Assembly (NCBI GenBank): GCA_964443975.1 | Contig: CAYUFS010000031.1 | Location: forward strand, 549 to 64,548 | Length of the DNA: 64,000 bases | Source of the DNA: an uncultured Myxococcales bacterium | GTDB lineage: Bacteria; Myxococcota_A; Polyangia; Fen-1088 | Direction of reading: 5' to 3' | Part shown: positions 3,679-46,873 of the stretch, in pieces | Layout: every line of letters starts with the position of its first letter | Position numbering within the stretch: the stretch's first letter is position 1 | The notes under the pieces: model-generated | Told to the model about the DNA's origin: nothing | The model's database searches: none | What the model saw: the letters and a program-made list of their open reading frames with translations, nothing else | Program-made: the position numbers and the translations under genes

Positions 3679-4170
3679 ATGGAGAGCATTCAATTCACCA
3701 CCTTCTCGGTGGACGGCGTCTACTTCGGCGTCGACGTGAACGGGGTCCAGGAGGTCCTGCGCTATCAGACGATGACGCATGTGCCGCTGGCGCCGTCAGT
3801 CGTGAAGGGCCTCATCAACCTGCGCGGCCAGATCGTGACCGCCATCGACCTGCGACAGCGGCTGGGCATGCCCCCCCGCCCCCCGGGCACGTTGCCCATG
3901 AACGTCGTCCTGCGCCTGGACGACGGACCGGTCAGCCTGCTGGTCGACGACATCGGCGACGTCCTGACGGTGTCGCCGCATCTCGCCGAGCCGCTCCCCG
4001 AGACGATGCAGCACCTTGGCCGCGAGCTGATCACCGGCGTCTACAAGCTGAGCGGCCGGCTGTTGCTGATCCTCGACGCGGAGCGCGCCGTGACGTTCCA
4101 CAACGGGCGGCTCCGCGGCAGCGACGACAACCATCACGCGGCCGCCGCCACCCCTTCCAATCCGCAATGA
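3679..4170 (+). CDS. cheW: Chemotaxis coupling protein CheW
   Basis: [39 protein letters not shown]. Confidence 0.96.
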
Positions 4171-4192: not shown

Positions 4193-6070
4193 ATGAAGAA
4201 CCTGAGACTGAACCAGAAACTGATCGCCGGCTTCGGCCTGATCCTGGGCATCTTCGCCTCGGTCGGGGTCGTCGTGAGCCACAGCTTGCAAGGCGTGAGG
4301 GCCGGCGGCGAGATCATGCGCACGCACTCGATCCCGGGAATGTTCCAGCTGGCGTCAATCCGGAAGCTCTCGAACGCCAACTTCCTCCTCGCTCAGTCCG
4401 TGGCCCTCACCGAGGATCCGGCGGCCCGGGACCGCCTGGAGGTCGAGATGACCGAGAACACGCGGCAGCGCCTCGAGCTGTTCCCGAAGTACGAGGCGCT
4501 GATCGACACGCCCGAGTTGCGCGGCCACTTCGACGAGCTCAAGCGCGCGACCGACAGCTGGAGCGCGCTCAAGCCCAGGATCTTCGCCGCCGCGAACGCC
4601 AACGACCAGAAAGAGGCGAGGCGAATCTTGAACGTGGAAGGCGCGCCCATTCGCGCCGCGTTCGACGCGGCGATGAAGGCCCTGTTCGCGTCCTCGGAGA
4701 GCGGGACGCGCGAGACCGCCGACGCCATCGTCGCCTCCGCGACCGCCATGGCGACCATCCTGTGGGGGGGGATCGCGCTGACGCTCGCATTCGGAATCAT
4801 CGTCGCCCTGGTCATCGCCCGCAGCATCACGCGGCCGGTGGCCTCGCTGGTCGAGCACGTCACCCGTGTCGGCCAGGGTGACCTCGCGTCTCGCTGCGAC
4901 TACAGCTCGCGCGACGAGATCGGCCAGCTCAGCGATTCGTTGAATCGCATGACGGGCGACCTGAAGATGGCGCAGGGCCAGGAGGCCGTGCGCACCGAGC
5001 AGGACCGCGAGACGCAGCGCGAGCTGCAGATGAAGGTCGACAGCTTGCTCAGCGACGTGCGGCGGATCGGCGACGGCGACCTGACGCAGCAGATCTCGGT
5101 CAAGGGCGCCGACGCCATCGGGCAGCTCGGCGAGGGCATCGAACACCTGTCCTCCGAGCTGAACCGAAACATGTCCGCCATCGCGCACAACGCCCAGACC
5201 CTCGCCGCCTCGGCCGAGGAGCTGAGCGCCACCTCGCAGCAGATGGCCTCCAACTCCGAGGAGACCTCCAACCAGGCGGGCTCGGTGTCCTCCGCGGCCG
5301 AGCAGGTCAGCAAGAACGTGCAGACCGTGGCCACGGCCGGCGACGAGATGACGGCCTCCATCAAGGAGATCGCGAAGAACGCGCACGAGGCCACCAAGGT
5401 GACGATGACGGCCGTCGAGGTGGTGCGCTCCGCGAACGCCACCATCAGCAAGCTGGGTGACAGCTCGATGGAGATCGGCAAGGTCATCAAGGTCATCACC
5501 TCCATCGCGGAGCAGACCAACCTGCTCGCGCTGAACGCCACCATCGAGGCGGCGCGCGCCGGCGAGGCCGGCAAGGGCTTCGCGGTCGTCGCCAACGAGG
5601 TGAAGGAGCTGGCCAAGGAGACCGCGAAGGCGACCGAGGACATCAGCCTTAAGGTCGATGCCATCCAGGGAGACACCGCCGCCGCCGTGAAGGCCGTCGA
5701 GGAGATCCGCGGCATCATCAACCAGGTCAACGACATCGCCACCACCATCGCCGGCGCGGTCGAGGAGCAGACGGCCACCACCAACGAGATCGGCCGCAGC
5801 GTGTCCGAGGCCTCCCGCGGCGCCACCGAGATCGCCCGCAACATCAGCGGCGTGGCGCAGGCCGCCCAGAACACCGCCGCCGGCGCCGGCGCGACCCTGA
5901 CCGCAGCGTCCTCGCTGGCCCAGCTCGCCTCCGAGCTCCAGGCGGTGGTCGGCCGCTTCAAGCTGGACGGCCGGCCTCGCGCCACCGCTCAGTCGGTCGC
6001 GCTCCGCTCGGTCAACGGTGCCGGTCGCGGCAACGGAACCTCTCATCGCAGCAACGGCTCGGCGGCTTGA
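4193..6070 (+). CDS. Methyl-accepting chemotaxis protein (TM, four-helix-bundle-like sensor, TM, HAMP domains, signalling domain)
   Basis: Two hydrophobic TM segments; canonical tip [31 protein letters not shown]. Confidence 0.97.
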
Positions 6071-19098: not shown

Positions 19099-19932
19099 TC
19101 ACGCCGGCTCGAGCACCGTCCCCACCGAGCCGGGGCGCCGCAGGGCCGCGCCGATCTCGCCGGGGGCCACGACGTGTACGGCGCCCACGCCGGCGGCGAG
19201 CGGCGCGAACGCCTCCTCGAGCTTCGGGATCATGCCACCCTGCACGGTGCCGTCGGCGATGGCGGCGCGCGCCTCGGGGACCGTCAGACGCGCGATCCGG
19301 GTCGCCGGATCGTCCCTGTCGCGACGAACACCGCCCACGGACGTGACGGCGACCAGCGCGCCGGCAGCGCGCGCGGCCGCGAGCTGGCTGGCGACGACGT
19401 CGGCGTTGATGTTCAGGCAGACGCCGTCCTCGGCGAGGCCCAGGCTGGCGATGACCGGCGTGTACCCTGCGTCGAGCAGCAGCGACAGCAGCGCCCCGTC
19501 GAAGCCGGTGACGTCTCCAACCCAGCCGAAGTCCACGGGCGTGGCGCCGCCGCCCGCGACCGCGCGCGGCGGTCGCTTGACCGCTCGGACCACGCCGCTC
19601 GTGCCGGCGAGGCCCACCGCGGCGACGCCCGCCGCGCGCAGGGCAGCCACGAGATCGACGTTCAACCTTCCCGCGACGACCATCTTCATCACGTCCAGCG
19701 TGGCCTCGTCGGTCACCCGGCGTCCCCCGACGAGCAAGGGCACGAGGCCGAGGCGCTCGGACAGGGCCGTCGCCTGGGGACCGCCGCCGTGAACCACGAG
19801 CGGACGCCACCCCGCCCCCACCACGCCCCGCAGATCGGCCGCGACCACCCGGAGCGCCGGCCCGCCCAGCACGTCGCCGCCCAGCTTCACGACGATCGGG
19901 CGGCGCGGCGGCTCGTCGGGGGCGGCGCTCAC
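19099..19932 (-). CDS. argB: Acetylglutamate kinase
   Basis: GTG at 19932 overlaps the argC stop; IVVKLGG, VHGGGPQ, GRRVTD, NINAD, GGMIPK. Confidence 0.93.
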   Translation of the reverse strand: MSAAPDEPPRRPIVVKLGGDVLGGPALRVVAADLRGVVGAGWRPLVVHGGGPQATALSERLGLVPLLVGGRRVTDEATLDVMKMVVAGRLNVDLVAALRAAGVAAVGLAGTSGVVRAVKRPPRAVAGGGATPVDFGWVGDVTGFDGALLSLLLDAGYTPVIASLGLAEDGVCLNINADVVASQLAAARAAGALVAVTSVGGVRRDRDDPATRIARLTVPEARAAIADGTVQGGMIPKLEEAFAPLAAGVGAVHVVAPGEIGAALRRPGSVGTVLEPA

Positions 19933-20981
19933 GGCCAAGGACCCGAGTCCTCCAGGGAGAGGGTCTCCGGCAAGCCAAGCATCAGGTTCATGTTCTGGAC
20001 GGCCTGTCCCGCGCCTCCCTTGATCAGGTTGTCGGTGGCGCTGACCACGACCAGCGTTCGCGTCCCGTCTCGAGCCTCCCCGAGCGTGAACCCCACCTCG
20101 GCGAAGTTCGAGCCGGAGACAGCCGCCACCTCGGGCAACCGGTCGCGGACGAAGCGGACGAAGGGCTCGCTGTCGTAGGCCGCCGCGTAGAGCGCCGCCA
20201 GCGACGCGGGCGTCTCCGCCGCGTCGACCTCCACGAACGAAGTGGCCAGGATTCCCCGCGACAGGGGCGCCGACACGGGCACGAAGCGCAGCTGGACGTC
20301 CGGGGCGCCGGCCGCCGCCAGCGTCTCGAGGATCTCGGGCGTGTGCTGGTGATCGAGCACGCGGTATGTCTTCAAGTTGACCGCGCGCACCGGGTGGTGC
20401 GTCCCCGCCGACGGCTGCACGCCGCTGCCGGACGACCCGGTGATGCCGACGACCCGCACGAGGCCGCGCAATTTCCCCGCCCGCGCCAGGGGCAGCAAGG
20501 CCAGCTCGACGGTGGTCGCGAAGCAGCCGGGCGAAGCGACGGCGCGCGCGCCGCGAATGGCGTCGCGGTTGAGCTCGGGCAAACCATAGACGAACGTGCC
20601 GAGCAGCTCGGGGCGGGGGTGAGGCGAGCCGTAGAAGCGCGCATACGCCCCGGCGTCGCGCAAACGAAAGTCGCCAGACATGTCCACCACCCTGGCTCCC
20701 GTCGCCAGCACGGCGGGGACGCTCTGGGCGCTCACCTTGTGCGGGAGGCCCATCAGGACCACGTCGCAACCCGCGGCAGCCGCCGCTGGCGACAGATCCT
20801 CGAAGCGGAGCGCGGTCCGGCCGGTCAGCGAAAGGTGCACGGCGCCGAGCGGCTCGCCCACGTGATCGATGCTGGCCACCCGGGCGAGGTCGACCTCGGG
20901 GTGCAGCAAGAGGCGCCTGATGATCTCCGCCCCCCCGTAACCGCTACCCCCGACGACCGCGGCCCGAAAGCGCTTCGTCAT
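19929..20981 (-). CDS. argC: N-acetyl-gamma-glutamyl-phosphate reductase
   Basis: VVGGSGYGGAE, LPHKVSA, DMSGDFRL, VYGLPE, ASPGCFAT, HQHTPEI, DNLIKGGAGQAVQNMN. Confidence 0.95.
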   Translation of the reverse strand: MTKRFRAAVVGGSGYGGAEIIRRLLLHPEVDLARVASIDHVGEPLGAVHLSLTGRTALRFEDLSPAAAAAGCDVVLMGLPHKVSAQSVPAVLATGARVVDMSGDFRLRDAGAYARFYGSPHPRPELLGTFVYGLPELNRDAIRGARAVASPGCFATTVELALLPLARAGKLRGLVRVVGITGSSGSGVQPSAGTHHPVRAVNLKTYRVLDHQHTPEILETLAAAGAPDVQLRFVPVSAPLSRGILATSFVEVDAAETPASLAALYAAAYDSEPFVRFVRDRLPEVAAVSGSNFAEVGFTLGEARDGTRTLVVVSATDNLIKGGAGQAVQNMNLMLGLPETLSLEDSGPWP

Positions 20982-21478
20982 CCTGAAAAAGGACCCTCAA
21001 AGGGTCCTTTAAATCCCCCGCGACGGCGCATGCGAGCAAAGCTCGCCTGCACCAACGCGTCCTGAAAAAGGACCCTCAATGGGTCCCCTTTAATCCCCCG
21101 CGACGGCGCATGCGAGCAAAGCTCGCCTGCACCAACGCGTCCTGAAAAAGGACCCTCAATGGGTCCCCTTTAATCCCCCGCGACGGCGCATGCGAGCAAA
21201 GCTCGCCTGCACCAACGCGTCCTGAAAAAGGACCCTCAAAGGGTCCCCTTTAATCCCCCGCGACGGTGCATGCGAGCAAAGCTCGCCTCCGCCAACGCGT
21301 CCTGAAAAAGGACCCTCAATGGGTCCCCTTTAATCCCCCGCGACGGCGCATGCGAGCAAAGCTCGCCTGCACCAACGCGTCCTGAAAAAGGACCCTCAAA
21401 GGGTCCCCTTTAATCCCCCGCGACGGTGCATGCGAGCAAAGCTCGCCTCCGCCAACGCGTCCTGAAAAAGGACCCTCA
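20981..21478. repeat. Tandem array of an 80-bp double-hairpin unit (6 copies plus a 19-nt partial copy)
   Basis: Units start at 20981 (79 nt), 21060, 21140, 21220, 21300, 21380 and 21460 (partial). Consensus TCCTGAAAAAGGACCCTCAAWGGGTCCCCTTTAATCCCCCGCGACGGYGCATGCGAGCAAAGCTCGCCTSCRCCAACGCG. Confidence 0.98.
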
Positions 21479-21507: not shown

Positions 21508-21729
21508 CTACCCGCCGCAAGGAATCTCCTTGCCGTTGTTGTCGAAGCACGTCCCGGTCGCGGCGGCGTCGGGCGGCGGCGCCTCCCACTTCGCGTCTTG
21601 TTCGATCTTGCCCTGAACATTGGCGCAGGTGTCCATGTCGGCATAGCAATATTTGCCCGTTGGCCCGCAGGCCACGCCGACGGAGATCACAGCGACGAGC
21701 AGACCAAAGCTGACCCAGACGAGCTTCAT
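21508..21729 (-). CDS. Small Cys-rich lipoprotein (73 aa)
   Basis: AAGGAGG RBS upstream; MK plus hydrophobic stretch and lipobox VAC; four further Cys. Confidence 0.75.
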   Translation of the reverse strand: MKLVWVSFGLLVAVISVGVACGPTGKYCYADMDTCANVQGKIEQDAKWEAPPPDAAATGTCFDNNGKEIPCGG

Positions 21730-21877
21730 TGCGGGGCGCCTCCTTGAAAACGAGCCGGTGCCCTCATGGGGGCCGAACCGTAAATATCCGACCTCCTTCG
21801 CCTGGTGTCAACGTCGGCCCGCGCGGGACTGGCGGGCGACGGTCGGCTCGCGCGGCTCGTGCTACGCTTCCGCCTCC

Positions 21878-29922: not shown

Positions 29923-31632
<1,710 letters not shown>

Positions 31633-46804: not shown

Positions 46805-46873
46805 GGGCGAGCGTAGCCCAGCTTTGCTGGGCGAAGCGAGGAGGGACCGGCGGTTTGCGAGCGCAAGCGAGCC
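46805..46873. repeat. Cluster of short hairpins (REP-like)
   Basis: GCCCAGC-TTT-GCTGGGC (46816-46832) plus GCGTAGC, GCGAAGC and GCGCAAGC mini-hairpin-like words. Confidence 0.45.

Follow-up and report, generated by a model that had tools for sequence, protein, structure and literature searches.

Tandem Array at the argC Locus

The sequence analyzed here, a window of 64,000 nucleotides of contig CAYUFS010000031.1 from an uncultured Myxococcales bacterium (assembly GCA_964443975.1), contained a tandem array of 80-bp units directly abutting argC, the gene encoding N-acetyl-gamma-glutamyl-phosphate reductase. According to Tandem Repeats Finder (TRF), the array at positions 20981–21478 had a period of 80, 6.2 head-to-tail copies and 96% matches (score 912), and it was the sole long-period array in the window. 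The features of the locus, where the minus strand is the argC strand, were the following:

19099–19938, minus strand: argB-like gene for an amino-acid kinase, which overlaps argC at the end of the latter; identified by gene calling and PF00696 on contigs with identical ArgC, mapped via the open reading frame (ORF) end at 19099
19929–20981, minus strand: argC, 350 aa; Pfam PF01118, PF22698 and PF02774
20981–21478, minus strand: array of six full units and a 19-nt partial unit; TRF, string identities, unit typing and covariance-model hits
20981–21059, minus strand: unit 1 (type C1), argC-proximal, 79 nt; string comparison
20988–21010, minus strand: hairpin A of unit 1, AAAGGACCC / 5-nt loop / GGGTCCTTT, the core of which recurs in every unit
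21019–21059, minus strand: hairpin B of unit 1, imperfect and 41 nt long, with CGCG/CGCG at its base and GCGAGC-loop-GCTCGC as its tip, recurring in each unit
21060–21219, minus strand: units 2 and 3 (type C), mutually identical, with the loop TCAAT on the plus strand; string comparison
21220–21299, minus strand: unit 4 (type V); string comparison and folding
21300–21379, minus strand: unit 5 (type C), identical to units 2 and 3; string comparison
21380–21459, minus strand: unit 6 (type V), identical to unit 4; string comparison
21460–21478, minus strand: partial seventh unit comprising only the 3' half of hairpin A and the tail, TGAGGGTCCTTTTTCAGGA on the argC strand; string comparison
21508–21729, minus strand: 73-aa ORF resembling a small Cys-rich lipoprotein, located upstream of the array; ORF list, with a homologous ORF in the related locus L001
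21783–21811, minus strand: sigma-70-like site TTGACA-17-GATATT upstream of the lipoprotein ORF, 10/12 matches; consensus match only

On the argC strand, the units followed one another in the order partial, V, C, V, C, C, C1, with types C and V four substitutions apart. A preliminary description made from the sequence alone had reported six 80-bp copies abutting the argC start codon, identity of units 2, 3 and 5 and of units 4 and 6, and a 160-bp higher-order duplication. TRF and string comparison agreed on the former, and string comparison bore out all of the identities, including the exact match of 21140–21299 (units 3–4) to 21300–21459 (units 5–6). The first base of the array was likewise correctly assigned to the A of the argC ATG (CAT at 20979–20981), this A being the last base of unit 1 on the minus strand. 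The terminal 19 nt (21460–21478) were identical to 20981–20999, so that the direct repeat described as bounding the array does exist; however, it is the partial seventh copy and not a separate boundary. Each hairpin core occurred six times in the window, versus 0.00–0.01 occurrences expected in shuffled sequences.

A coding repeat was rejected because the period of 80 is not a multiple of 3 and the ORFs across the array are short and occur on both strands. An array of the CRISPR kind was also rejected, as unique spacers were lacking. Neither pattern searches with 3 mismatches nor an unfiltered covariance-model search revealed further copies elsewhere in the window. The sole sub-threshold model match outside the array, at 46811–46837 on the plus strand (16.9 bits, E = 0.07), was a GC-rich partial hairpin resembling the tip of hairpin B and is probably an unrelated stem-loop.

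Secondary Structure of the Repeat Unit

Read on the argC strand, each unit comprises, in this order, hairpin B (CGCG base conserved, stem variable and covarying), a linker rich in G, and hairpin A (GGACCC-N5-GGGTCC). In all six units, hairpin A was GGACCC-N5-GGGUCC followed by UUUUU, which is the architecture of an intrinsic terminator and agrees with the sequence given in the preliminary description; TTTTTCAGGA comes directly after hairpin A on this strand. In unit 1, the sequence following hairpin A contains TTTAAAT in place of CCTTTAAT, and hairpin A is separated from the AUG by UUCAGG. The stem is extendable by G.U and A-U pairs, and in the subfamily to which the window belongs, in which A- and T-tracts flank hairpin A, it is a GC-rich stem of 6–11 bp with a 5-nt loop, U5 on the 3' side and an A-run upstream. 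The folding energy of hairpin A with U5 alone was −12.6 kcal/mol.

Hairpin B had been described as GCGAGC-AAA-GCTCGC. This motif is present in the six units, but it is just the tip of a larger structure, an imperfect 19-bp stem that occupies 41 nt and on the argC strand reads CGCG-U-UGGUGCAGGCGAGC / UUU / GCUCGCAUGCGCCG-U-CGCG. The folding energy of a C-type unit on this strand was −44.5 kcal/mol (z = −5.3), whereas the four substitutions of the V-type unit, which were non-compensatory, weakened hairpin B (−37.3 vs. −44.5 kcal/mol).

Searches against Rfam gave only eukaryotic miRNA models as the best matches of the array (E-value of 0.5 or worse), with no match to a leader or riboswitch. For a typical relative element, the E-value was 0.015 or worse, and among 15 family loci, nothing relevant reached the gathering score.

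Dispersed Family of Two-Hairpin Elements in Polyangia

An exact search with hairpin A, performed on one genome per GTDB species (genome_contigs), revealed at least 118 loci, mostly in metagenome-assembled genomes (MAGs) of Polyangia/Myxococcota, with many loci per genome and some tandems of 2–3 copies. The whole architecture of about 80 nt was common to 94 of the 126 exact hairpin-A matches among the matches listed, and the elements of the family were about 76–86 nt in size, with two hairpins. A second search, using the type-ii junction (see below), yielded at least 91 loci. Polyangia genomes rich in the element included MFD04752.bin.1.7 and MFD05502.bin.2.118. Thus, the check proposed in the preliminary description, to look for dispersed copies of the unit, is answered in the affirmative: family members occupy many positions across numerous Polyangia/Myxococcota MAGs and frequently form short tandem arrays. 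Five exact hairpin-A matches occurred in viral contigs; none of them was a family member, and a phage origin was rejected.

Both hairpins were supported by covariation in an alignment (A1) of 73 family elements and three window units, the consensus of which on the argC-type strand was GAT-CGCGU-[variable stem]-GC-UUY-GC-[variable stem]-UCGCG-GGGGGG-nnn-GGGACCC-UUUGA-GGGUCCC-nnn. In this alignment, 86.7% of cells were paired, versus 37–46% in controls with slid partners; cells with double changes numbered 247 versus 38–66, and the covariation score was 0.275 versus 0.04–0.10, respectively. None of 500 shuffles reached the observed covariation values. In hairpin A, the outer pairs covaried and the GGACCC/GGGTCC core, which had served as the search key, was invariant; in hairpin B, the base was invariant and the stem had 14–34 double changes per pair. 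With the covariance model built from A1, the six window units scored 35–70 bits on the minus strand, and about 14 loci beyond those that had anchored the search were found in 718 kb of sequence from relatives. By extrapolation, the density of the family is about 1 locus per 50 kb. Dispersal in the source genome itself is indicated indirectly: the 36-mer of hairpin A joins other hairpin-B variants in the same metagenomes, with one contig at the depth of this genome.

Subfamilies and Arrays at Other Loci

Two types of elements were distinguished. In type i, CG-rich pairs lie on both sides of hairpin A and no U-tract follows (most members of this type lack one), while in type ii, which includes the window array, A- and T-runs lie beside hairpin A (AAA-GGACCC...GGGTCC-TTT). 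The loops of hairpin A in type ii vary (TGGGA, TGAGA, TCGGA). Among 75 newly fetched loci, TRF revealed 26 type-ii arrays with 2–5.5 copies and a period of 76–86, many of them 97–100% identical and many in MFD-labelled MAGs. About one-third of the window-type loci were arrays of 2–5.5 copies; about 10 arrays were found at type-i loci by the same program. The six units of the window formed the longest array among the family loci examined.

A type-i array in an MFD-labelled MAG (L155, 3011–3399) had 4.8 copies of 76 bp. Its first unit was of type i (GGGACCC-TTTGA-GGGTCCC), and the next four had GGAACCC-TCTCA-GGGTTCC, a compensatory change of G-C to A-U in the stem; these four units alternated between two variants, similarly to the V/C pattern of the window. 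Since 26 type-ii arrays and the L155 array were found, multi-copy arrays can be regarded as a normal state of the family.

The L155 array bears on the possibility that the family is a non-autonomous transposable element (a REPIN/RAYT system, a PATE derived from IS200/IS605, or a miniature element (MITE) with terminal inverted repeats), the arrays of which arise by repeated insertion beside existing copies. A first unit of another subtype suggests such an independent insertion, and the copies are dispersed, vary in presence between related genomes, and are bordered by short conserved sequences (left, ATC-TAG-TTCG; right, GCG-ATC). However, neither target-site duplications (flank position tables) nor terminal inverted repeats (aligned ends) were found, a GTAG/GGAG-type 5' tetranucleotide was not evident, and the two hairpins are unlike, whereas the ends of IS200/IS605 elements and the arms of REPINs resemble each other. 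The single inverted pair examined (L122) flanks exbB/exbD-like genes and not a transposase. A RAYT/IS200-type gene, for which a search nearby had been proposed, was not found: a tblastn search with E. coli RayT as the query, run on the window and on fetched loci totalling about 1 Mb, gave nothing below E = 0.6, which is a weak test confined to these loci. Moreover, the 160-bp duplication and the hybrid units described below are better explained by unequal crossover, and we consider the transposable-element explanation unlikely.

Several variants of the element were observed in addition. In L191 (7189–7313) and L195 (5571–5695), apparently at orthologous sites, an extra hairpin of about 40 nt was nested in the hairpin-B loop, an arrangement that resembles a nested insertion or else a composite form of the element. 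Truncated copies, with hairpin A and a C-rich linker and without hairpin B, were found in L090 (about 3886–3954), L192 (about 4241–4295), L185 and L187 and were kept between related genome pairs.

Polymorphism of the Array Between Assemblies

Independent assemblies of the same population, which encoded an identical ArgC or lipoprotein, differed in the number and order of units at argC, as follows:

L199, L200, L297 and L298 (four contigs): V-C1, 2 units
L296: V*-CV-C1, 3 units
L300: V-C-CV-C1, 4 units
L202 (contig starting inside the array): V-C-V-C1, at least 4 units
Window: V-C-V-C-C-C1, 6 units

According to unit typing, unit C1 was found in all independent assemblies of the locus. Other contigs ended inside the array, and the count of six units was specific to the window assembly. 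Together with the dispersal of copies, the differences in array length and unit order between independent assemblies favour the classification proposed earlier, namely, a BIME/REP-like or variable-number tandem repeat (VNTR) element.

It is necessary to consider whether the locus holds only one or two units, with the six-unit array and the 160-bp duplication having been made by the assembler. Two independent MEGAHIT assemblies with 2 units (L199/L200 and L297/L298) and several contigs breaking inside the array would agree with this, as would the internal exact repeat of more than 179 bp, which is beyond typical short-read k-mers; the sequencing runs matching the argC locus were represented by contigs only. 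Meanwhile, words specific to the units had 2–3.6 times the depth of the flanks in Logan unitigs, and therefore several units are present and not one; in run X2, the C-type and V-type bodies summed to about 5 units. The k-mer depth thus suggests about 4–6 units at argC, and the single-copy artefact that would have overturned the preliminary description is excluded by the unitig depth. Furthermore, other assemblies gave 3, 4 and at least 4 units in distinct orders, including a hybrid CV unit that must exist in the reads because its defining sites are less than 30 nt apart; this unit is a real sequence polymorphism. Same-family arrays of 4–5.5 units also occur in MFD-labelled MAGs. An artefact of assembly is therefore highly improbable as the source of the array.

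argC Locus and Its Counterparts in Related Genomes

The domains PF01118, PF22698 and PF02774 in the 350-aa ORF constitute the semialdehyde-dehydrogenase domain set of ArgC, the N-terminus of the protein aligned with the N-termini of its relatives, and an in-frame TGA was located 18 nt before the ATG. No Pfam match was obtained for the 73-aa lipoprotein-like ORF. A small Cys-rich ORF of this kind (73–77 aa, with a lipobox followed by CGP) is conserved just upstream of argC in this Myxococcota group, the copy in L001 being located at 5743–5976. In the window, a divergent gene for an S55 peptidase (PF05580) lies beyond this ORF. The site at 21783–21811 was the only promoter-like site found by the sigma-70 scan between 20500 and 22200, and it points to transcription of the lipoprotein gene, argC and argB as one unit. 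A promoter within the last repeat unit, which according to the preliminary description would make the copy number irrelevant, was not found; nor did any other unit contain one in the sigma-70 scan, which covers no other promoter types, and the spacing of sigma-54 sites (GG-N10-GC) did not fit by eye.

The closest ArgC homologues had 74–77% identity, with the neighbouring divergent gene kept beside argC. In L001 and L002, this gene was present beside argC, and no array was found upstream of argC, nor one of this kind elsewhere in these loci; in L001, the small lipoprotein ORF was kept about 24 nt before argC with no repeat between them. The covariance model gave no hits in L001–L009, although elsewhere the genomes of L001 and L003 do contain family members (L138, L099). 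Consequently, the insertion at argC is lineage-specific, and, since the closest relatives lack it there, the element is not a conserved regulator of the arg genes.

These data also bear on the view that the array is a dedicated regulatory leader, having evolved as a multi-terminator or attenuator of argCB, for example, one responsive to arginine. Its position directly between a promoter-proximal small ORF and argC, the hairpin followed by U5 on the argC strand in each unit, and the lack of a promoter-like site downstream of the array in the sigma-70 scan would all suit such a leader. On the other hand, the nearest relatives, including L001 with its short spacer, are without the element, the same unit is found at numerous loci next to genes of unrelated kinds, Rfam searches matched neither a leader nor a riboswitch, and the upstream ORF is a conserved lipoprotein-like gene and not an Arg-rich leader peptide. 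We therefore assign a dedicated leader very little probability, and the appropriate annotation for the array is a repeat region, not an arg-specific leader.

Genomic Context and Strand of the Elements

The genes flanking the family elements, identified using a crude ORF caller based on the GC content of third codon positions, were convergent in 21 elements and divergent in 3; co-directional genes were found in 8 elements in one orientation and in 9 in the other. Stop codons were located within 30 nt of the element at 17–25 of about 85–90 loci on each side. Because of the prevalence of convergent over divergent genes and the proximity of stop codons, the family can be assigned to terminator zones and not to promoter zones, similarly to REP elements, and the 8 versus 9 co-directional cases indicate that it is not orientation-specific. 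In type-i elements (L081–L198), TAG or TAA occurred at a fixed offset, at positions −7 to −5 from hairpin A, in about 45% (consensus TCTAGTTCG), and at about 20 type-i loci the gene next to the element ended with this stop codon. The CTAG core provides a stop on both strands. This arrangement could reflect either a target-site preference or a stop codon borne by the element.

Of 86 elements, 83 had the more favourable folding energy on the argC-type strand. This asymmetry arose mainly from the G-rich linker and from a conserved internal loop rich in purines, with G.A, A.G and G.G mismatches; it hints at a single-stranded (RNA) form but does not prove it.

A family active as RNA might consist of small-RNA (sRNA) genes, in which each 80-nt unit would be an sRNA that runs from a 5' stem-loop through a linker to a U-tailed terminator hairpin. 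This organization is known from tandem sRNA families, for example, NsiR1 or CcsR, and the 'cuckoo' sRNA arrays lie downstream of a small ORF, as does the argC array. The architecture of the unit on the argC strand is indeed sRNA-like, and covariation supports the structure. Nevertheless, the sigma-70 scan found no promoter-like site inside the units, the conserved parts are stems with no conserved single-stranded seed region, most type-i members lack a U-tract, the family is orientation-neutral relative to neighbouring genes, and the array sequence is listed in no RNA run. An array of sRNA genes is accordingly only a faint prospect.

Origin of the Array and Its Possible Effect on argC Expression

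Taken together, these results make it probable that the array arose by local amplification, through unequal recombination, of a structured REP/BIME/MIRU-like repeat that is interspersed between the genes of an uncultured Polyangia lineage. One element would have inserted between the small lipoprotein gene and argC, where the spacer is short, and would then have expanded by unequal recombination or replication slippage between units, for which the exact two-unit duplication of 160 bp and the hybrid CV units argue. The lipoprotein gene, argC and argB probably share a transcript that starts at the promoter-like site in front of the lipoprotein gene, and since this is the only such site, transcripts reaching argC probably cross all of the units, that is, six copies of the 19-bp hairpin and of the GC hairpin with U5. 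The units may act as partial intrinsic terminators, pause sites or RNA-stabilizing structures, and the proximal hairpin, which ends 6 nt before the AUG, could hinder initiation. Copy-number-dependent attenuation of read-through into argC is thus plausible from the sequence; the copy number could scale argCB expression as a side effect of a semi-selfish repeat and not as the action of a dedicated arg regulator. Overall, the interpretation given in the preliminary description is supported in part, its proposal that copy number tunes read-through into the arg operon being a hypothesis.

Several observations weigh against parts of this interpretation. The number of co-directional elements in the two orientations (8 vs. 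9) argues against a strictly strand-specific role as a terminator. The terminator consensus scan did not list hairpin A; according to our reading, the extension of the stem pairs the U-run with the upstream A-run, and this pairing could weaken termination in vivo. As argC and argB are biosynthetic genes, six efficient terminators in front of them would be costly, which suggests either leaky hairpins or an undetected promoter, and, as noted for the sRNA view, no RNA run lists the array. In the paired columns, G.T outnumbered A.C by only 38 to 25, so that the strand asymmetry in 83 of 86 elements is not backed by them; for this reason, the folding asymmetry was not used as proof of an RNA role. 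The length differences of 2–6 units may reflect true variation or assembly collapse, which are not separable in short-read assemblies. Finally, the fetched loci, aligned ends and flank position tables revealed neither a transposase nor terminal inverted repeats nor a target-site duplication, and the mobility of the element is therefore deduced only from its distribution.

A broader possibility, which we regard as rather doubtful, is that the family is a hitherto undescribed, self-propagating class of two-hairpin elements of Polyangia, spreading, for example, through an enzyme that recognizes hairpins on one strand or by insertion beside existing copies, that its RNA form has a host function at the 3' ends of genes, and that its arrays are heritable, rapidly mutable rheostats of operon read-through. 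The RNA form might comprise the long hairpin with the conserved tandem G.A internal loop, the G-rich linker and the GGACCC/GGGUCC hairpin, and its function might be modular termination, 3'-end protection or the binding of a dedicated protein. Should there be a cognate enzyme, the REP/RAYT type of host–repeat relationship would extend to a new phylum.

Comparison with Known Repeats

Like REP, BIME and REPIN elements, the family consists of short palindromic units with secondary structure that occupy many intergenic sites in a genome, are enriched between convergent genes and at gene 3' ends, and are occasionally arranged in arrays. REP elements affect mRNA stability and termination as a by-product. 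BIMEs, however, alternate inverted REPs and REPINs are inverted pairs of REPs, whereas the argC family has two unlike hairpins per unit arranged head to tail; it also lacks the GTAG/GGAG-type 5' motif (alignment and position tables), and no RAYT gene was found in the fetched loci.

MIRUs are units of 40–100 bp occurring in direct tandem at many intergenic sites of a high-GC genome, often within operons, where they touch the stop and start codons of their neighbours, and they form the basis of MIRU-VNTR typing. They are oriented with the operon and have short ORFs allowing translational coupling. The argC family resembles them in its direct tandem arrays of units within this size range at multiple intergenic loci. 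The copy number of MIRUs differs between strains; at argC, 2 to 6 units were counted in different short-read assemblies, a range that may reflect true length variation or assembly collapse, and arrays at other loci had 2–5.5 units. Unlike in MIRUs, the 80-nt unit is not a multiple of 3, contains two covarying hairpins and is orientation-neutral.

The BOX elements of Streptococcus pneumoniae and the Correia and ERIC repeats alter the expression of adjacent genes via RNA structure, terminators or promoters. They are likewise modular, structure-forming intergenic repeats, and in BOX, the boxB module is repeated a variable number of times. None of them has sequence similarity to the argC family; only the middle module is repeated in BOX, whereas the whole unit is repeated in the argC array, and Correia and ERIC repeats have terminal inverted repeats and target duplications, neither of which was seen in the flanks of the argC family. 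The flanks also differ from those of MITEs with terminal inverted repeats: ATC-TAG-TTCG on one side and GCG-ATC on the other are not inverted termini, and no duplicated dinucleotide or longer target was seen. With intrinsic terminators, including bidirectional ones, the window subfamily shares the GC-rich hairpin A followed by U5, and the family as a whole shares the location at gene 3' ends. Ordinary terminators, however, form no conserved 80-nt family and have neither a second long hairpin nor tandem repetition, and in the argC family, most type-i members are without a U-tract and the scan did not call the window hairpins.

No description of the family was found in the literature on repeats of myxobacteria and Polyangia (the RMX repeats of M. 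xanthus were not among the repeats compared), and the two-hairpin family is apparently undescribed, although of a familiar REP/BIME/MIRU-like kind. It is a large, structurally constrained repeat family of uncultured soil Polyangia that is absent from Rfam 15. Its arrays break or collapse short-read assemblies, which matters for the quality of MAGs, and may serve as VNTR-type markers for tracking soil myxobacterial strains. The argC array itself may provide a natural series of 2–6 units upstream of an essential biosynthetic operon, in which the effects of stacked hairpin–U-tract structures on read-through could be studied in a high-GC bacterium.

Additional Observations

In L127, a tmRNA gene (4897–5253) was located about 1.4 kb from a family element, with no indication of a link between them. 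Within the window, a (GCG)14 trinucleotide run at 30185–30227 (95% matches) was the only sizeable microsatellite revealed using TRF.

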